Of a stretch of DNA of 16,468 bases, positions 3,303-10,845 are shown piece by piece. Numbering within the stretch: the first letter of the stretch is position 1; each line of letters starts with the position of its first letter. Source of the stretch: a virus (Duplodnaviria; Heunggongvirae; Uroviricota; Caudoviricetes); IMG/VR virus record IMGVR_UViG_2690316184_000007; one strand, written 5' to 3'. The position numbers were made by a program, and so were the translations under genes. Below the pieces are notes generated by a model. It was not told the origin of the DNA and made no database searches. It saw only the letters and a list, made by a program, of their open reading frames with translations.

Positions 3303-3521
3303 TCAAAGAGAGAGCGCCACCTGTCCTGATTTCATTGGATGCGGCTGAACCGGATTTGACTCTTTTGGCGTTGCAATCGAACGAACAAAAGTTTCATGGG
3401 TAACAAAAGTATGGCTGCAGTTAATGTTCTGGCACTGGTTGTAACGCTCTTTGGTCAATGAAGATACCTGAAAACTGCTGCGAGTATGGGCGGCACTTCC
3501 ACACAGTGGGCAAATCATCAT
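3303..3521 (-). CDS. ogr: Ogr-type zinc-finger late-gene transcription activator, 72 aa
   Basis: MMICPLCGSAAHTRSS...KERYNQCQNINCSHTF... shows the Cys4 pattern (CPLC ... CQNxNC) and length of P2 Ogr and sits immediately downstream of D as in P2. Start taken at the internal ATG, not the ORF-track start at 3554. Confidence 0.85.
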   Translation of the reverse strand: MMICPLCGSAAHTRSSFQVSSLTKERYNQCQNINCSHTFVTHETFVRSIATPKESNPVQPHPMKSGQVALSL

Positions 3522-3611: not shown

Positions 3612-4712
3612 TCATTCCATTTCGAAATCATCAATCCTCACTTCAAGCTCCAGACTGGTCGTAAAACCGTTATCCGGGCTGACGGTATGCGTCAGAGTCG
3701 TAATGGTCCATTCCGCATCATCTATCGGCTGTTTAAAGCCACTGACTTTCACTGGCATTTCCGTGTAGAGATCTGCCCGCCCTTCCGCCAGTTGTAGCGA
3801 GAATGATGCAACGCCGCGTTGCAGGCGTTCCCACTGCATTTTCGCTGCCCGTTCGGCGTTGCTCCGGTTGGCATAAGTGCGATTAAGTACCAGCACGTTT
3901 TCATCCGTACCCACCAGGTAATCGCCCTGCTTCGCTTCCGGCTCTTTCTTCTGCTTCTTAGTCCTGCGCTTACGCTTCACCGTGGTGCTTTCTTTCTTCG
4001 CGGGTTCGCGGGTATGCAACCAACTGGCAATTACGCCCGTGTAGGCTCCGCGATCTGCCAGGGTAAAGCGGTGACTGTCGCCGTCCTTACGTGTGATTGA
4101 GATCACCGGCAGTGGTTTACCGCTGGCGCTTTTGCCCTGTCCCTGCCGGATGAATAACAGATTGCCATTTTTCACCGACGCGATGGCACCGTACTGGCGC
4201 GCCAGCCGCATCAGAAAACTGCCGTCACTCTCATTAGTCTGGTCTATATGCTCCACGGGCTTATCCGACAGGTCTTTACCCAGTGCCATCTTCAGCTTAT
4301 GACGCGCGGCTATTTCCTTCACCAGTTCCCCGACAGTGGTCTTGTGCCACGATTTTTCACGGCGGGTATTCAGCGTTTCCCTAAAATCAGCACTTCGCGC
4401 CCGGATAGTCAGGCGATCCGGTGCGCCGGTGTGTTCAATCTCGTCCACCGTGAATGCCCCTTTCGGGAAAAGCGGCTGCCCCTTCCAGCCCAGCGCCAGC
4501 GTGATGACCGCACCACGGCGCGGCAGCACGATTTTTCCGTCGGCGTCGTCCAGCTCCAGATCAATCTGGTCTGCTTCAAAGCCCCGATTGTCCGTCAACG
4601 TCAGACTCATCAGGCGGTTATCCAGCACAGTGGTGATATCCTTCCCCTCAATACTGATGCTGAATGCGGGAGTTTTGTTGCCTTTGTTAAGCAGTTCAGA
4701 GCTGAAATTCAC
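3612..4712 (-). CDS. D: P2 gpD-like tail protein (late control gene D), 366 aa
   Basis: 366-aa ORF immediately downstream of U with an ATGA stop/start overlap (4709-4712) and upstream of ogr; translation recognised as the gpD family from memory. Confidence 0.85.
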   Translation of the reverse strand: MNFSSELLNKGNKTPAFSISIEGKDITTVLDNRLMSLTLTDNRGFEADQIDLELDDADGKIVLPRRGAVITLALGWKGQPLFPKGAFTVDEIEHTGAPDRLTIRARSADFRETLNTRREKSWHKTTVGELVKEIAARHKLKMALGKDLSDKPVEHIDQTNESDGSFLMRLARQYGAIASVKNGNLLFIRQGQGKSASGKPLPVISITRKDGDSHRFTLADRGAYTGVIASWLHTREPAKKESTTVKRKRRTKKQKKEPEAKQGDYLVGTDENVLVLNRTYANRSNAERAAKMQWERLQRGVASFSLQLAEGRADLYTEMPVKVSGFKQPIDDAEWTITTLTHTVSPDNGFTTSLELEVRIDDFEME

Positions 4713-5194
4713 GACAGCAGCCCTCCCACCGTTTTACTGATATCGCTTAAGGCAGACGTTGCCGTATCCTGCAAATTATTCAGCTGCGCACTGAGATCAC
4801 CGAACATATCGGACAGGGATTCATCCACCCGTTTGAGCGACAGGGTAAACTCAATCCGGCGCGGCATACCATCGCGGAAAAACTCCGTTTTAGTCTGATT
4901 CAGTCCCTCAATCACATACATGCCGTAAATCGTGCCGCTGCCTTCAATCAGAGGCCATGCTTTCCCCTGTTCTGCCATCTGCTCCAGTGCCAGCAACGAC
5001 AGCCTGCCGCCTGTTATCTCCGGCATAAGAACACCGGAAAGCGTCAGCATGTCGTTGTCCGGTCCCAGAAACTGCGTGGACGGACGACGATTTACCCGGC
5101 TGTTAGCCGCATGTCGCCAGCTGCGCTGATACTGCAGTTCCTGATACGGCACGGTGCGCAGCATAAACACGTACAATCCCAGCACCATCATCAT
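4709..5194 (-). CDS. U: P2 gpU-like tail protein, 161 aa
   Basis: 161-aa ORF between the T remnant and D with ATGA overlaps at both ends; size and position match P2 gpU. Confidence 0.8.
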   Translation of the reverse strand: MMMVLGLYVFMLRTVPYQELQYQRSWRHAANSRVNRRPSTQFLGPDNDMLTLSGVLMPEITGGRLSLLALEQMAEQGKAWPLIEGSGTIYGMYVIEGLNQTKTEFFRDGMPRRIEFTLSLKRVDESLSDMFGDLSAQLNNLQDTATSALSDISKTVGGLLS

Positions 5195-5646
5195 GCGTCG
5201 TATCCCCCCTGATCGCTGTAGTTACTCCTGGCTTTTGCCTTCAGCCTGCGTTCACGTTCATCAAGCTGGCGGGCCACCTCCCGCGCAATATCCTGCGCAC
5301 TTTGTCCTGGCTGCGTCTGAATAATGATCTGCGTCGGTGCCTCAATCCGTTGAGCGGGCGGCACAGTGGCTGCACGACTCACCATTGCTTCACCGCCTTT
5401 CGTGGGAAGTGCCAAAGGATGCAACGGTGGAAGCTCTGCTGGCGCGGCAGCAACACCCATCATTCCGGCAACAACGGCAGCCAGTGCAGCTGTATTTCTC
5501 CGGCTGGTCACATTTGCCGGGCCGTTAACAATTTCCGGCCCGTTTTCACCGACGATGCCAAACTGCCCGCGCGGGATATAGCCGCCGCTGTCATACATCC
5601 CCGCAAAGCCATATCCCCATGCCCGGTTATCTTTCTGCCATCCCAT
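5191..5646 (-). pseudogene. T: 3' remnant of the tail tape-measure gene T (C-terminal ~150 codons only)
   Basis: Reading frame overlaps the U start by ATGA as T does in P2, but an in-frame stop lies at 5656-5658 and the upstream DNA encodes a portal fragment on the opposite strand. Gly/Ala-rich C-terminal sequence is typical of tape-measure ends. Confidence 0.65.
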
Positions 5647-6122
5647 CCGCTTTGCTCAACGAGTCCGCCACGCTGTTCCGCCGCAAGTATTACATCAACG
5701 GCAGCCATGCAGGCTTCATCATGTATATGACCGATGCCGCGCAGAATCAGGAGGATGTGAACAATCTCCGCAATGCGATGAAAAGCGCCAAAGGCCCTGG
5801 CAACTTCCGCAACCTGTTTATGTACTCGCCTAACGGCAAAAAGGACGGGATTCAGATCATCCCGTTGTCAGAAGTCGCGGCGAAGGATGAGTTTCTGAAT
5901 ATCAAAAATGTCAGCCGCGATGACATGATGGCAGCGCATCGTGTGCCGCCGCAAATGATGGGGATTATGCCGAATAATGTTGGGGGGTTTGGGGATGTGG
6001 AGAAGGCAAGTAATGTATTTGTTCGTAACGAACTTATCCCCTTACAAAAACGTATCGAACAATTAAATCAATGGATAGGAAACACAATTATTAATTTTTT
6101 ACCATATTCTCTCCAAAGTTAA
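5619..6122 (+). pseudogene. Q: 3' fragment of the portal gene Q (C-terminal ~150 codons)
   Basis: Translation ...RVPPQMMGIMPNNVGGFGDVEKASNVFVRNELIPLQKRIEQLN... is recognised as the C-terminal region of P2-type portal proteins. The ORF is about half the full portal length and has no plausible upstream continuation. Confidence 0.65.
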
Positions 6123-6134
6123 AAAATAGCATAT

Positions 6135-6157
6135 GGGTGCATAATGTTTATGCACCC
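6135..6157. terminator. Bidirectional hairpin terminator between convergent Q' and the TIR gene
   Basis: Perfect 9-bp inverted repeat GGGTGCATA-atgtt-TATGCACCC in the 40-bp gap between the two convergent stops; T-rich tract on the minus-strand side (atatgctatttttt). Confidence 0.5.
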
Positions 6158-6162
6158 TCTTA

Positions 6163-6780
6163 TTACCAGTTAAAAATTGATGAGCTGCGAATTGCAGGAA
6201 CATCCGATGGATTTCGTTTAGCAGCTGGTTCCATCAACTTACGCTTATTAAATGCCTGATCAATATAATACTCAGGATTTTTAATAAAGACAGAGTATTT
6301 TACCAATGCACAATATACGTCAGAGTCATTATAATGGGGAACTGTTTTTTCATAAACATGATTCTTTCTAACCAGATAAGGCAAATAATAATCATATCCC
6401 AAACCTGGCGTTCTTAGACTTATAGAACATCCGCATGATGGATCTGCACATACTGCAGGAGTAAACACACTGTCGTAAATTTCATCTCTGATAACACCAA
6501 TTAGACCATTATAGTTTTCTCCCCAGAGTGATGCTTGAATTTCAGTGTTTACAAATGGACGATTTTTGGTTTCCGTTCCAATAAGAACGACAGTAACCGT
6601 TGAGTCTTTTAAAAAATCCTCACGAATAGTCCTCATTATTGTTTCATCAGTGTTAGTTGTACTAATGTCACCATCACTTACCGACTTATCAATAAACGAT
6701 TCTCCTCCGAATAAATCAATAATCTCATCTTTGAGATCTTGTTCGTTAGCATGATGATAACTAAGAAACGTCTTATGCAT
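6163..6780 (-). CDS. TIR-like domain protein, ThsB-like (DUF1863 / PF08937-type), 205 aa
   Basis: N-terminus MHKTFLSYHH... and the core STVTVVLIGTETKNRPFVNTEIQAS resemble the B. cereus ThsB pattern as I recall it (VFFSFHY ... VTCVLIGSQTFNRRWVRYEI), including a Glu at the expected catalytic position (E80). Start ATG overlaps the upstream gene's stop (TAATG). Strongly AT-rich relative to flanking prophage DNA. Confidence 0.7.
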   Translation of the reverse strand: MHKTFLSYHHANEQDLKDEIIDLFGGESFIDKSVSDGDISTTNTDETIMRTIREDFLKDSTVTVVLIGTETKNRPFVNTEIQASLWGENYNGLIGVIRDEIYDSVFTPAVCADPSCGCSISLRTPGLGYDYYLPYLVRKNHVYEKTVPHYNDSDVYCALVKYSVFIKNPEYYIDQAFNKRKLMEPAAKRNPSDVPAIRSSSIFNW

Positions 6781-7511
6781 TATTCACTCCATTTATCAAC
6801 ATTTATATCAAACTCTTTGACTACCTTATCATTGAAGAAATCGTTTACTTCTTTAAAACCTTCCAATACTTGACTAAAATGATAATAATGCTTTTGTATA
6901 ATACTTATAGGGGTTAAATGATACGGCAATGATATAAATTCGCCGTTAGGGTCTCTATCCTTTGTGGTCACTTTATCATGATCTGAAACATATTTATGCC
7001 ATCTCCGATAATTATTTTGATGTTTTGTTAAAAAAGAGTTTAAGGTTTTCAAAATTTCATTTGAAAGTAAATACAGTTTTTTATCTCTTTTTTTCTTCAC
7101 ATCTAGTAATTTCATTTCATCTCTAATGAATTTATAGCACTCATAATATGAGTTTAAAACTTCTTCAATTGAGTCATAATTCGGATCAAATTTAAATAAT
7201 GTTCGCTTCGTATCCAGATAATTTTTTACGCTCTTTTTAAAAAGAAGATCAGACTTATTTAGTAAAATATTAATACCACCAAAACTAAGTTGCTCCAATC
7301 TCAATGAATATCTTTGATGAAATGCACCGACCAGCAAGATATAAGCAACTAAAAATAGTATTAATACTGATAAAAAAGCACGAATTATGCTTACATTTGA
7401 CATGAAATTAACTATAAACCACCATTTTTCAAACGGTGAAAACGGAATGCTCCCCATGATAATAAGTAGAAGAACAAAGATACAACTCCATAAAACCCAC
7501 AATCTGTACAT
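6780..7511 (-). CDS. Membrane protein with two N-terminal transmembrane helices and a ~150-aa Lys/Tyr/Asn-rich C-terminal domain of unknown function; first gene of the TIR operon
   Basis: ORF-track frame extends to a TTG at 7556; I prefer the ATG at 7509-7511 (MYRLWVLWSCIFVLLLIIMGSI...), preceded by AAAAAGGA. Hydrophobic helices at about residues 4-22 and 50-75 of the ATG-start protein. The C-terminal domain has no Gly-rich Macro motif and no SIR2-like motif I can see. Confidence 0.6.
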   Translation of the reverse strand: MYRLWVLWSCIFVLLLIIMGSIPFSPFEKWWFIVNFMSNVSIIRAFLSVLILFLVAYILLVGAFHQRYSLRLEQLSFGGINILLNKSDLLFKKSVKNYLDTKRTLFKFDPNYDSIEEVLNSYYECYKFIRDEMKLLDVKKKRDKKLYLLSNEILKTLNSFLTKHQNNYRRWHKYVSDHDKVTTKDRDPNGEFISLPYHLTPISIIQKHYYHFSQVLEGFKEVNDFFNDKVVKEFDINVDKWSE

Positions 7512-7663
7512 AAGAAAGATCCTTTTTCTTTTTATAATACTGCAACTACACCTCAAGTCAAAACCCTCTTCTGATATTACCCTCTACTACAGTAACCCAT
7601 CACATGACCTCCGACTTATCAGAAGACTAGCCAAACTTTCTCAATCAAATCAGGTTGCGCGCG

Positions 7664-7682
7664 CTCGTATCCCCGCCACGCC
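7664..7682 (-). other. cos-like site (P2/186-type cohesive-end sequence)
   Basis: Minus strand reads GGCGTGGCGGGGATACGAG. The first 13 nt match the 19-nt cohesive end of phage 186 as I recall it (GGCGTGGCGGGGAAAGCAT; P2 GGCGAGGCGGGGAAAGCAC). Recalled from memory, not checked. Confidence 0.4.
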
Positions 7683-7731
7683 TGCCCGCTTTATGTAGTG
7701 GTTTTCATGCACCTGCATGATCTACGCAAAA

Positions 7732-7751
7732 GCCCGCCAGTTCTGGCGGGC
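7732..7751 (-). terminator. Rho-independent terminator ending the minus-strand small-ORF/DinI-like transcript
   Basis: GC-rich hairpin GCCCGCCAG / CTGGCGGGC with TTTTG immediately following on the minus strand, ~135 bp downstream of the DinI-like stop. Confidence 0.5.
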
Positions 7752-7886
7752 CTTAGCAAAAACGATCCTCAAACGATCATGCGATCTCATGCGGCATAGA
7801 CATGCACTACAGAGCTAACGCCTCGCAAGGGCTCGTTGTTCAACCTTGCTGACGCCAGAAACAAGTTCAGACGCCAGCAACGTTTC

Positions 7887-8120
7887 TTAATGCAGCCAGC
7901 TGTCGTCTTCCCACACCTTCTGCATAATTTTCATCACTCGTTTTCTTTCTTCGTCCAGTTGCAGTCCGGTCAGTTCCACACCGTTAGAGCTACCTTTGCG
8001 GATACGAATTACCGTTTTGGGATACAGGGGGCGCAGATTGCGGTAAAGCTCGGATTCAAGGGCGTCCAGGGTAGACTGGCTAATCTTCTGCTCTTTATCG
8101 ATCATTATTTCAATGCGCAT
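7887..8120 (-). CDS. DinI-family protein, 77 aa
   Basis: MRIEIMIDKEQKISQSTLDALESELYRNLRPLYPKTVIRIRKGSSNGVELTGLQ...VWEDDSWLH parallels E. coli DinI (MRIEVTIAKT...ALAGEL...) in length and pattern. Start taken at the internal ATG 8118-8120, preceded by GGTGA. Confidence 0.7.
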   Translation of the reverse strand: MRIEIMIDKEQKISQSTLDALESELYRNLRPLYPKTVIRIRKGSSNGVELTGLQLDEERKRVMKIMQKVWEDDSWLH

Positions 8121-8130
8121 AAAAGTCACC

Positions 8131-8319
8131 TCAATTGATGACATCCATTGAGCGGTTGTATTCGTGGGTTCTGATTTTTGCCATGAGTTCATCTGTCAGT
8201 TCAGAAACCCACTGCAGGGCCAGCCCCTTCTCTTCATCACTACACTCACTAGCCGCTACAAGCTTAAGAAAAAAATCAATGCGCTGGAGCTTCAAAGACT
8301 CCAAAAAATAGTCCTGCAT
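8131..8319 (-). CDS. Small acidic hypothetical protein (62 aa), first gene of the LexA-controlled operon; possible Tum-like antirepressor module
   Basis: Internal ATG at 8317-8319 preceded by a strong TAGGAGGAAAG Shine-Dalgarno; stop 10 nt upstream of the DinI-like start. No motif recognised. Confidence 0.5.
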   Translation of the reverse strand: MQDYFLESLKLQRIDFFLKLVAASECSDEEKGLALQWVSELTDELMAKIRTHEYNRSMDVIN

Positions 8320-8380: not shown

Positions 8381-8472
8381 TATAATAATCTTACTGATGT
8401 AAAACGTTTTTTTACGTTCATCAGCCTGATATGCCTGGTATTATTAAGAGCACGAATTGTTAACCCGCGTAA

Positions 8473-10845
8473 TTAATACAGGTTCCGCCATTTATCATCT
8501 TCCTTCAGACGCTGGTTCCGATAGAAGATACGCAGGCCTGCTCCTGATGGAATACTGCCACCGCGAAGGAGCAAATCGACTTCTTTCTCGCTGCCATCAA
8601 ATCCTCTGGACTTCAGTTCATAGACGAGCTGCTGATGCTGATGATCTGTAATTCGCTGTTTGTAGTCTTTACACCTTTTCGGTTTAACCAGGCGCAACCT
8701 TACTGCCAGCTCCCGGCGATCTTTTTTGCTCATACTGTGCAGGTAATCGTGCAACTCCTTGTCATCCATGCGGGTAATGTCCGTTCTGGTGTCCCCATCA
8801 GCTGATTTATCTTTCTCCTGTTGGTTCAAATTTTCAGCAAGGGGACAGTTATTGCCACGAGTCCAAGGGGCGCAAGCGCCCTGGTCGGCTGCCGCCTCCT
8901 GAACATCAACGGCCTTACGAACCATTTTCCACTTCACGGCATGAGTGCAGATCTTGCCCTCTGCAATAGGTGACCAGATGCCATAAATACGAATGCCGTG
9001 ATCGCCATAGGCGGTCGGCTCTTCGTTGATTTCATAAGCGGTTCTGATGAGGTGATATTTGCGGGGAACCAGTACGCCGCCCTGCTTCATGATGTAGGTG
9101 GCAAAACAACCAGCATCAGCAGCAGCCAGGATGGCATCAAGGCGCGGGTTATCCAGTACCCGCGCACCTGCTTTTTTGTCCCCCTGTTGCCTTGCCGCCT
9201 GACCAGCCAGCAATCGCAGTTCACGGTAAGCCTGACGCCCCGGAATGCCAAAGAAGCGGAATTGCTGAACACGATGCAGAGACGCCCAGGCATTAACGTA
9301 TTCAGCATTATCACGCAGGGATTTCCCCGTTTCCTTGCTGATCTCGCCAGCCAGACCACGCCCGTCAATGTTCTTACTGATGTATTTCGCGATGTAGCTT
9401 GTTGGCGTACCTTTGCGCGGGTTAATCAACTCAGACTTAAAGCGCGGCCCAGTGTTATTGCCCAGTTCCTCGCGGTCTTCACGGATGGCAAACTTACGCA
9501 GTAATGCAGTGATGGCGCGGCGGTCTTTTTTGCGCATAAAACACAACAGGTGCCAGTGAACTGTACCGTCATGATGCGGCTCAGCCACCCGCACGCCATA
9601 CCACCGCAATCCGGCTTTGTGCATCGCCTTACGAAATGCAGCAAACATGCCGACCAGATAATCACTGCTTTGTCTTACCGTCGCATTTGTCCAAGTTGGG
9701 TTGGGCCTGCCATTATTTAGCGTGGAATGGAAACGTGACGGACAGGTGATGGTGTAGAAAACGGCGCAGTCACCGCGCATTTCCGCGATAAGCTCCAGGC
9801 CTTTAACACAGGCCATCATCTCATTGCGGCGATGCGCAGGGTTGCTGCTGCTGGCGTTTACCACATCCTCCATGTCCAGCGTGTCGCCGTCTTCGTTCAC
9901 CAGTTCATGAGAACGAAAAAACTCCAGCGACTTACGGCGCTGCTCACGTTTATGCATCACGGCTTCATAGCTGACATAGGGAGATGCTTTTTTGCTGACC
10001 AGGCAGACAGCACGCAACTGCTCTTCCCGCCATTCGCAACGCATCTTCCATAATTTCCGGTACCACCAGTCAGCGCACAACATACGCGCCAGCGAACCCG
10101 GAATGAGTTCATAGGGCACGGGTTTACGGCGGTTTCTTTTCCGGCGGAGTTGCTCAAACGCAGGCGGGATGACATCCAGATGCAGGGTTTCCGCTGCCAC
10201 CTTTTCCCATGTCTTGCGGATTTCTTCTGGCTTAACGTCATCGGTGACATACAAATCGCCACAAGCTGCATCAAGGCACATGCTCATATGCGCAGCTACC
10301 AGGGTGGACAGGCGTTTCACCTGATCCTGACTCATTTCAGGCAGGATCAGCAGGCCGTCCAGCCCTTCATGGCTTGCCATAAAGCGAAAAGAAGTGGATA
10401 GCTGACAGTCGCGTACATGCTCCAGCCGTTCCAGACATGGCTTAATCGTCTCACGCAAATAGCGGGAATAAGCCTTTGGCCTGCCCAGGCTGCTGAAGTA
10501 TTCAATACGTTGCATCAGCGGCTTGCTGATATGGGAAGGCTGGGCATTGACGTCCGCCAGAATGACCATATCTGGATTAAAACGCTGCTGCTCATGCGCC
10601 AGCTTTGCCCGACTAATGAGCTTATCCTGCTCCATTTCGCGCTGGACAGGATCACGGGATTCATTAAAGAAATAACGCTCCCAGACCTGATCACTCAGTG
10701 CCTCGCGGCGCAGCTGTTCCTGCTCGTTATCGGCAGCGTACAGAGCGATCAGGTTTGAAAGCGCAGAAACTGAAGATTGCTCTTCTGTCTCTACGTAAGG
10801 ATTGATTGCTTTTTTCTCAGCATTCCAGGAATAGCTGTAGTTCAT
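8473..10845 (-). CDS. A: P2 gpA-type rolling-circle replication initiator (HUH endonuclease), ~790 aa
   Basis: Contains the HUH motif ([11 protein letters not shown]) and the two-tyrosine active-site motif ([13 protein letters not shown]). Start preferred at the ATG 10843-10845 (MNYSYSWN...), which overlaps the upstream stop as TAATG; the ORF track extends to 10896. Confidence 0.85.

Follow-up and report, generated by a model that had tools for sequence, protein, structure and literature searches.

The cos-proximal gpA-gpQ interval of P2-like phages has been defined as a hotspot of variable gene content (Rousset et al. 2022, PMC9122126) and is described also in a further report (PMC13586616). 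According to the former study, it accommodates hundreds of alternative gene arrangements, with anti-phage systems being enriched, and Table S5A includes precisely the arrangement of the locus analyzed here (WP_001154433 + WP_001217579 + WP_000286099 + WP_000549632, described as 'hypothetical + DinI + hypothetical + DUF1863'). The same study reports the '2TM + 1TM + TIR' system of phage AC1, validated against lambda, LF82_P8 and P2. A second described system concerns a gene pair of Escherichia coli ACN001, which was validated as type VI Thoeris in a preprint (Yirmiya et al. 2025, bioRxiv 10.64898/2025.12.03.692087): (i) the TIR protein ThsB forms 2'cADPR and (ii) ThsG, composed of transmembrane (TM) segments and DUF6650, represents the effector. 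As far as the accessible text of this preprint goes, the ACN001 system was active as a clone with its native promoter and defends E. coli MG1655, with T7 used as signalling trigger; toxicity of 2'cADPR was demonstrated with other type VI representatives, and three TIRs, unnamed in the text, are reported to form this compound.

The window studied here comprises 16,468 nucleotides of a viral sequence (IMG/VR record IMGVR_UViG_2690316184_000007). Its segment 6123–7760 very probably represents one half, namely the portal side, of the known hotspot adjoining cos in P2-like phages; it is located in a Fels-2-like E. coli prophage remnant of the APEC O78/ACN001 type and carries a type VI Thoeris system as cargo. 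Slot and cargo are both already published, so that the finding, though correct, is no new one.

Prophage remnant

The gene order is A, a small ORF, DinI, cos, thsG, thsB and a portal remnant. The gpA-like replication endonuclease gene (8473–10845, minus strand; RefSeq) forms the A-side anchor of the hotspot and has a homologous context in phages 813R9, Fels-2 and KP12, while, on this side, the DinI/Tum-like gene (7887–8120, minus strand; by annotation) is the backbone gene adjoining cos. The original prediction had placed the operon beside the 3' end of the portal gene. The portal reading frame indeed ends at 6122, but the gene itself is a pseudogene (gpQ-like; 5619–6122, plus strand; PF04860, E 1.3e-10; annotated 'incomplete') retaining the C-terminal 167 codons only, the last ~4–38 of which (from ~6007–6110) already belong to the variable segment. 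At ~5620 the portal remnant is fused to a tail tape-measure gene (5191–5622, minus strand; according to RefSeq for the identical APEC O78 locus), which lacks its N-terminus and marks the left side of an internal deletion. This junction is common to 18 complete E. coli genomes.

No terminase gene (gpP/gpM) was found in the element of ~13 kb, the region between tape-measure and portal remnants being deleted. Since the phage is dead on account of this deletion and the missing terminase, the slot is a fossil and the cassette acts as a fixed chromosomal defence pair. In the APEC O78/ACN001 lineage, decay of the carrier phage has left a ~13-kb remnant with the defence cassette retained. One may speculate that a P2-like helper phage could still mobilise this remnant, in which cos, int, cI and A are intact.

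Cassette genes and their assignment to type VI Thoeris

The product of thsB (6163–6780, minus strand; 205 aa) is a ThsB-type TIR protein (PF08937, E 1e-14; PADLOC ThsB, E 4e-12). Its residue E80 is invariant in 19 homologues down to 32 % identity and, judging from its place in the FVNTEI motif, is probably the catalytic glutamate. Residues 1–174 are identical to the TIR sequence of IMG gene 2638504641 from E. coli ACN001 (Table S1 of the preprint bioRxiv 10.64898/2025.12.03.692087), which is listed there as 'DUF6650 - Type VI' with 'Yes' for defence. A comparison of ThsB with PDB sequences yielded no match at E ≤ 0.01.

The adjacent thsG (6780–7511, minus strand; RefSeq WP_000286099) encodes an effector of 243 aa, in which N-terminal TM helices precede a helical C-terminal domain (AlphaFold2 model with pLDDT of 82.8). 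Its start is the ATG at 7511, as backed by the family alignment, and its stop overlaps the start of thsB (TAATG). Searches of ThsG against Pfam and PADLOC gave nothing meaningful, and hmmscan produced no PF20355 match even at E ≤ 1. The predicted assignment to DUF6650 is based on precomputed PF20355 matches in 4 of 66 family members and on the preprint, where the effector 2638504642 appears as 'DUF6650 and TM' (bioRxiv 10.64898/2025.12.03.692087).

E. coli ACN001 carries the window segment 6100–7800 at 100 % identity. As judged by sequence, the cargo is the validated type VI Thoeris (ThsB + ThsG). The main text of a survey of E. coli TIR systems (Nat Commun 2024, PMC11350192) contains no matching accession.

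The same cassette is present in the intact A14 prophage, which possesses a terminase and extra genes on the A side, and occupies the same slot in a P2-like prophage of Serratia with a variant cos. The pair also occurs outside phages, namely in a non-phage chromosomal context in Cedecea and in a TIR-rich island in Priestia. Among deposited phage genomes (tblastn), ThsG had no match and ThsB retrieved only Streptococcus and Enterococcus phage genes of 32–36 % identity; the cassette is therefore absent from the isolated phages of the searched collection. The 'plasmid' p13TMH22-1 was considered as an episomal phage carrying the cassette and rejected as most likely an assembly artefact, since its record shows numerous frameshifts as well as genes of the chromosome (ybjL, potFGHI).

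The cos site

The minus strand of 7664–7682 reads GGCGTGGCGGGGATACGAG (plus strand, CTCGTATCCCCGCCACGCC), and had been proposed to match the conserved part of the cohesive end of 186 and P2. Comparison with the reference sites bears this out: the 19-mer GGCGTGGCGGGGATACGAG agrees with the cos of 186/PSP3 (GGCGTGGCGGGGAAAGCAT) at 15 of 19 positions, including the first 13 nt, and with cosL of P2 (GGCGAGGCGGGGAAAGCAC) at 14 of 19. This match count alone exceeds background to a modest degree only, since the best chance sites within the window reach 13/19, and allowing up to three mismatches to the 186 19-mer gave no match. In addition, the left-arm motif GGGGTGAAATGGTGAAAATCC, conserved in 'empty' loci, is absent from the window, and the prophage has no terminase. 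Such features would suit a chance or vestigial resemblance rather than a packaging site, with the true cos lying elsewhere or having been lost with the deletion. Yet this reading is highly improbable, because the wider context, i.e., composite motif, right-arm block, strand orientation and the annotation of phage SEN8, settles the assignment.

The composite motif GGCGWGGCGGGGA-N7-GCGCGC occurs once in the window versus 0 of 200 shuffles. The GCGCGC following the 19-mer is shared with P2 and 186, and the site as a whole fits the P2-family end type GGCG(A/T)GGCGGGGA... followed by GCGCGC. The ~30 nt preceding the 19-mer (GGTGCATGAAAACCACTACATAAAGCGGGCA) align with flanking sequence at the right end of both P2 and 186, and the block TGCAT.AAAACC...AAG.GGGC on the A side likewise aligns with the right ends of these phages. 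The strand reading GGCG faces the portal gene, an orientation shared with P2, 186 and PSP3, and the position relative to A and Q is likewise correct. Moreover, the annotated cos of Salmonella phage SEN8 is the same 19-mer, ggcgtggcggggatacgag, an entry apparently based on annotation and not on end sequencing (PMC5427200). The cos core of the window (7657–7682, minus strand), defined by motif, flank and the 26-mer of relatives, consists of the 19-nt putative cohesive end and CGCGCGC. This exact 26-mer was found in at least 120 IMG/VR viral contigs and in the isolated phages Fels-2, vB_EcoM-813R9 and KP12, from all three of which the left-arm motif is absent as well. The window 19-mer is taken as a putative P2-family cohesive end.

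The core is preceded by a conserved right arm of ~115–140 nt (7683–7820, minus strand; from folding and alignment of relatives), which includes a hairpin at 7732–7751 facing the DinI/A operon. Relatives align with the window from 7800 down to ~7654. In most of 114 loci, the 115–140 nt ahead of the 19-mer are conserved without gaps, and 55 of them have the hairpin motif at the same distance. In Fels-2, 26-mer and right arm are identical to those of the window. However, the SEN8/Fels-2 group comprises complete phages with terminase, while the prophage of the window lacks this enzyme and has lost almost all structural genes.

Variability of the slot

Comparison was based on 88 loci, i.e., IMG/VR viral contigs in which the identical cos core is followed by a portal gene. 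Between cos and portal gene, the interval ranges from ~150 to ~3500 nt, lengths being approximate to ~10–20 nt, since the portal length of the window was assumed for all loci and portal C-termini differ by a few codons. Its content falls into 60 unrelated DNA clusters, 12 being 'empty'. Different genes are also present in each of Fels-2, vB_EcoM-813R9, KP12 and 500465-1 between the same cos and portal gene. Among 1277 E. coli genomes having the flanks, 42 contain the cassette, the GC content of which (23–40 %) forms a trough between flanks of 50–58 %. A variable slot with conserved flanks, as foreseen in the original prediction, is thereby confirmed.

These data also decide on the alternative that thsG and thsB are conserved backbone of a phage lineage and not exchangeable cargo. 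The cassette is nearly invariant in E. coli (at least 98 % identity in all 43 records), and the remnant common to 18 genomes, viewed alone, could resemble a fixed feature. Nevertheless, the rarity of the pair among flank-bearing genomes, the multitude of unrelated contents at the same position, the other genes of named relatives, the deviating GC content and the occurrence outside phages leave this alternative virtually no credibility, and on such comparative grounds it may be regarded as already refuted.

Defence domains predominate in the slot contents, as found by scanning 87 cargo ORFs with PADLOC and Pfam; they include retron RT, TIR_2, SEFIR, DprA, AIPR, GmrSD, PIN, SieB, RelA_SpoT, KAP and AbiC. 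That defence cassettes are exchanged in such a slot, regarded in the original prediction as valuable if true, had already been established by PMC9122126 and PMC13586616. On the opposite side of cos, the distance to DinI varies from 205 to 3444 nt across loci. The window belongs to the 205–207 class; its gap of ~205 nt represents a second variable sub-slot at minimal length and without cargo.

Borders, terminators and cassette exchange

Divergence among loci begins directly after the 26-mer, just a few nt from CGCGCGC. The foreign DNA of the Fels-2 group sets in 7–9 nt past the 19-nt cohesive end and replaces the left-arm motif of 'empty' loci as well as the last portal codons. On the other side, the portal remnant is homologous to 86 other loci from 5620 up to 6007–6110. 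Junctions are spread across ~100 nt of the portal ORF, and portal tails co-vary with the cargo cluster.

The hairpin at 6135–6157 lies between the convergent portal and thsB genes in DNA not common to other loci, i.e., it is cassette-borne. It is stable on both strands (dG −15.0, z −3.0 on plus; dG −16.3, z −3.4 on minus), and was flagged as terminator-like on the plus strand, where the tail is weak, while a U6 tract follows the extended stem on the minus strand. This hairpin is likely a bidirectional intrinsic terminator, as predicted from folding. The hairpin of the right arm has a dG of −25.1 on the minus strand (z −4.2) and is followed by UUUUGCG; only four U's come after its stem, and a stricter terminator scan did not flag this hairpin. 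An identity with the 186 terminator t95b was considered and is unsupported, the aligned 186 hairpin lying at another coordinate than the annotated t95b. The original prediction viewed both hairpins as insulating the cassette. Both are indeed stable, but the one at 7732–7751 is part of the conserved right arm beyond cos. Since it lies in conserved backbone, the right border of the cassette is cos itself. A sigma-70-like promoter (TTGACT-16-TATTAT; 7534–7561, minus strand; 10/12 consensus match) is predicted upstream of thsG in cassette-specific DNA. Promoter and terminator functions are predictions only.

The very sharp border within a few nt of CGCGCGC, the hairpin at the portal-side end and an integron-like orientation bias (83 of 87 cargo ORFs directed from cos to portal) might indicate site-specific, integron-like capture of cassettes, with the flanking hairpins serving as recombination sites instead of terminators. 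Against this speak cassette starts sharing no motif beyond the cos core, the spread of portal-side junctions, hairpin sequences differing between cassettes and the absence of an adjacent dedicated recombinase gene; furthermore, selection for an intact cos explains the sharp cos-side border equally well. Integron-like capture is accordingly rated very unlikely.

The boundary positions suggest an exchange of cassettes between co-resident P2-like genomes, which would proceed by recombination within the conserved flanks. The layout runs from a right arm of ~140 nt via the 19-nt end and CGCGCGC immediately into foreign low-GC DNA, which contains a predicted promoter of its own, thsG, thsB and a predicted hairpin terminator of its own and extends into the last few portal codons. 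The cargo could be expressed autonomously in the lysogen, with the backbone hairpin stopping read-through out of the DinI/A operon and the cassette hairpin ending thsB and portal transcripts alike. Judging by the literature on the identical ACN001 system and type VI relatives of it, infection would cause ThsB to form 2'cADPR, which would activate ThsG, modelled in the literature as hexameric, membrane-anchored tube, and lead to growth arrest.

A further-reaching reading, that the A-Q hotspot consists of two sub-slots abutting a minimal cos core of ~165 bp with a dispensable left arm and that turnover is tied to cos, is considered unlikely. If true, cassette turnover would be coupled to cos, e.g., via recombination primed at terminase-cut ends as opposed to ordinary flank recombination, and the replacement of the left-arm motif by foreign DNA would mean that the cos left arm is dispensable for packaging.

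Comparison with known systems

In P2-like prophages, the DNA adjoining the packaging site serves as an exchangeable bay for anti-phage systems, occupied in the present case by a TIR-signalling (Thoeris) system. The value of the present finding is confirmatory, the literature of 2022–2026 covering all but the fine structure of the slot borders. The ACN001 type VI Thoeris gains a specific mobile context: in E. coli as well as Serratia, it is seen in the cos slot on the portal side of Fels-2-like phages. At the sequence level, there is no difference between this system and the window; the text of the preprint, as accessible, does not mention the prophage or cos context (0 occurrences of 'prophage').

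The published hotspot and the window concern the same locus, flanked by replication gene A and portal gene Q and adjoining cos. As far as the available text of the hotspot papers (PMC9122126, PMC13586616) goes, the A-Q interval is treated as one hotspot, whereas the window resolves two sub-slots flanking a cos core of ~165 bp, with the cargo on the portal side and a minimal A side. The AC1 system of Rousset et al. (2022) resides at the same P2 hotspot and likewise has membrane partners for its TIR protein. An identity of the cassette with the AC1 system was rejected, the 315-aa TIR protein of AC1 being unrelated to ThsB of the window (BLASTP E 0.16); it is also ruled out by gene number (three in AC1 vs. 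two in the window).

The old and tin genes of P2 had been invoked as precedent. They resemble the cargo of the window in being non-essential anti-phage genes adjoining cos, with an own promoter and transcribed away from cos. However, they are unrelated to the genes of the window and map to the right end of P2, opposite to the cargo of the window with respect to cos (A side instead of portal side). The portal side is 'empty' in P2, 186 and PSP3, where cos and the portal stop are ~165–180 nt apart (P2, ~165 nt).

Identification of the cos site

The original prediction had read the minus strand of positions 7664–7682 as the conserved part of the P2/186 cohesive end. According to the reference records, this 19-mer (GGCGTGGCGGGGATACGAG as reverse complement) agrees with P2 cosL (GGCGAGGCGGGGAAAGCAC) at 14 of 19 positions and with the cos of 186 and PSP3 (GGCGTGGCGGGGAAAGCAT) at 15 of 19, the first 13 nt being the same as in 186. 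The mismatch count by itself is weak evidence, since the best chance sites within the window reach up to 13/19 and a search of the window for the 186 19-mer with at most three mismatches retrieved no site. Judged from the sequence, it is the context that is decisive for the assignment: (i) the composite GGCGWGGCGGGGA-N7-GCGCGC occurs once in the window and in none of 200 shuffles, (ii) the right-end flanks of both P2 and 186 can be aligned to the ~30 nt directly upstream of the 19-mer (TGCAT.AAAACC...AAG.GGGC), (iii) the strand reading GGCG is directed towards the portal gene, which is also the arrangement in P2, 186 and PSP3, and (iv) the 19-mer extended by CGCGCGC recurs as an identical 26-mer in phages Fels-2, vB_EcoM-813R9 and KP12 and in at least 120 IMG/VR viral contigs. 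Salmonella phage SEN8 has the same 19-mer annotated as its cos site (PMC5427200). One IMG/VR locus (L073, IMGVR_UViG_3300011853_000021) carries two inverted cos 26-mers at 6704–6729 (+) and 3440–3465 (−), about 3.2 kb apart.

Variable content between cos and the portal gene

Phages with the same cos hold different genes in the interval from cos to portal: vB_EcoM-813R9 has a Hypoth_Ymh-domain gene, Fels-2 STM2723.1, KP12 three ORFs, 4LV2017 a retron and 500465-1 a TIR-domain gene (5215–5643) unrelated to that of the window. In phage 500465-1, IS100-type insertion fragments also lie within the A gene region.

When 120 listed IMG/VR loci were oriented on the cos 26-mer, a portal gene was found in 87, yielding 88 intervals together with the window. 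Among these listed matches, the intervals span about 150–3500 nt and fall into 60 clusters (≥80 % identity over ≥70 % of length); 12 loci are "empty", with 147–179 nt from cos to portal, and resemble P2, 186 and PSP3, in which cos lies about 165–180 nt from the portal stop. In 56 cluster representatives of the IMG/VR loci, 83 of 87 cargo ORFs run from cos towards the portal gene and are convergent with it, as in the window. Domains encoded by the 87 ORFs comprise retron RT, TIR_2, SEFIR, DprA, AIPR, GmrSD, PIN, SieB, RelA_SpoT, KAP NTPase, AbiC and dCTP-deaminase-like. The cassette of the window occurs in only 42 of the 1277 complete E. coli genomes that have the flanks, and its GC content drops to 23–40 % vs 50–58 % in the flanks. 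The interval is a variable slot with conserved flanks, and its exchangeable defence cargo, as originally proposed, is also borne out by the published hotspot at this position.

Borders of the cassette

On the cos side, divergence begins directly past the CGCGCGC that follows the 19-mer. "Empty" loci (e.g., L023, L034 and L059) keep a post-cos motif (GGGGTGAAATGGTGAAAATCC / CGCGCGCAACGGGGTGAAATGGTGAAAATCCGG) related to the left ends of P2 and 186; it is absent from the window (7620–7656), Fels-2, 813R9, KP12 and most occupied loci, which suggests that the left arm of cos is dispensable for packaging. On the portal side, homology of the window to 86 other loci extends from the deletion junction at 5620 to 6007–6110, i.e., into the final ~4–38 portal codons. 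Since the C-terminal tails of the portal proteins (...IGNTIINFLPYSLQS* in the window, ~6007–6122) lie outside the conserved region and co-vary with the cargo cluster, the portal C-terminus appears to be rewritten when a cassette is replaced. From these two borders, the predicted cassette span is about 6050 to 7656.

The cassette carries its own predicted promoter (TTGACT-16-TATTAT, 7561–7534, minus strand), the thsG–thsB pair, translationally coupled by a TAATG overlap at 6780, and a hairpin at 6135–6157. A mechanical ORF call starting thsG at TTG 7556 (258 aa) was overruled by RefSeq and an alignment of 25 homologues, both backing ATG 7511 (243 aa), which leaves space for the promoter.

The hairpins at 6135–6157 (−15.0 kcal/mol on the plus strand; −16.3 on the minus strand, with an extended stem followed by U6) and 7732–7751 (−25.1 kcal/mol on the minus strand, then UUUUGCG) had been proposed to insulate the cassette. 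Both fold stably, but only the former is cassette-borne; the latter belongs to the cos right arm, a stretch whose conservation reaches 115–140 nt upstream from the 19-mer in most loci. Since this hairpin is turned towards the DinI/A operon, and operon and cargo share one direction of transcription, it could plausibly block read-through into cos and cassette, a role that is predicted only.

A second variable interval, between DinI and the cos right arm, measures 205–3444 nt across loci (in three of the comparison loci it lies at positions 4154–5000 of L008 and of L009 and at positions 8382–9999 of L131). In the window it holds no cargo (~205 nt; 7683–7886); an orf97-like gene fills it in Fels-2 and KP12, and two ORFs in strain A14. 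The hotspot appears to resolve into two sub-slots around a cos core of ~165 bp, with portal-side cargo adjoining the cohesive-end sequence within 7–9 nt and replacing the final portal codons.

Prophage context

E. coli APEC O78, ACN001/ACN002 and related isolates of avian and human origin share positions 6100–7800 of the window at 100 % identity. At the APEC O78 locus, RefSeq annotates a P2/Fels-2-like prophage between ybjL and rcdA, with ogr (3303–3521), D (3612–4712), U (4709–5194) and a tape-measure gene without N-terminus (5191–5622) on the minus strand, the portal gene, likewise without N-terminus, on the plus strand (5619–6122), and, again on the minus strand, the TIR-domain gene thsB (6163–6780), the "hypothetical" thsG (6780–7511), a DinI-family gene (7887–8120), a small ORF (8131–8319) and replication endonuclease A (8473–10845), followed by Dam, cII, cI and int. 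A deletion from tape-measure to portal gene (junction ~5619–5622) has removed terminase, capsid, lysis and most tail genes, leaving a ~13-kb prophage remnant with ogr, D, U, cos, A, Dam, cII, cI and int. The junction is common to 18 of the 42 complete cassette-bearing genomes (APEC O78/ACN001 group); in strain A14, the cassette lies within an apparently complete prophage. Cassette and P2-like prophage also occur on the 36-kb "plasmid" p13TMH22-1 (NZ_CP019257.1), but an episomal phage was rejected in favour of an assembly artefact as the most likely reading, since the record contains chromosomal genes (ybjL, grxA, nfsA, potFGHI) and many frameshifts.

The cargo as type VI Thoeris

ThsB (205 aa) is a ThsB-type TIR protein (PF08937, E 1e-14; PADLOC ThsB, E 4e-12), with E80 invariant among homologues down to 32 % identity. 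ThsG (243 aa) combines TM helices at its N-terminus with a helical C-terminal domain (AlphaFold2 pLDDT 82.8); it gave no direct match to Pfam or PADLOC and the structural search no informative neighbours, while 4 of 66 family members have a precomputed PF20355 (DUF6650) match. The pair is kept as a unit in Serratia (same slot of a P2-like prophage, adjoining the variant cos GGCGTGGCGGGGCTACGAT), Cedecea (non-phage chromosomal site) and Priestia (TIR-rich island).

TIR + DUF6650 systems constitute type VI Thoeris (Yirmiya et al. 2025, bioRxiv 10.64898/2025.12.03.692087). That study lists ACN001 genes 2638504641/2638504642 as "DUF6650 and TM", type VI, defence "Yes", with signalling triggered with T7; the tabulated TIR sequence is identical to residues 1–174 of the window ThsB. 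Type VI TIRs form 2'cADPR upon infection, and 2'cADPR causes growth arrest of cells with type VI systems; for ThsG, the authors model a hexameric tube and hypothesize that TM-bearing versions may breach the membrane (bioRxiv 10.64898/2025.12.03.692087). Identity with the AC1 "TIR + TM" system, validated at the hotspot by Rousset et al., was rejected, the two being different and unrelated.

Comparison with known hotspots

The cos-proximal gpA–gpQ region was surveyed in all E. coli genomes by Rousset et al. (2022), yielding 1,650 arrangements in 18,150 loci, several of them validated as anti-phage systems (PMC9122126). Table S5A of that study holds the exact arrangement of the window (WP_001154433 + WP_001217579 + WP_000286099 + WP_000549632), labelled "hypothetical + DinI + hypothetical + DUF1863". 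The hotspot was re-analysed in 1,511 P2-like prophages in 2026 (NAR; PMC13586616). Together with Yirmiya et al. (2025), these studies mean that slot, variability, defence content and cargo were all previously described; the two sub-slots, the 7–9 nt abutment, the near-uniform cargo orientation and the shared remnant vs the A14 prophage are left over as details. The original observation is confirmed, and its interpretation is supported, subject to correction on three points: the second hairpin (backbone rather than cassette), the pseudogene/remnant context and the side of cos. The last concerns the analogy to old and tin of P2, which holds for the cos neighbourhood but not for the side, since old and tin lie on the A side of cos and the cargo of the window on the portal side.
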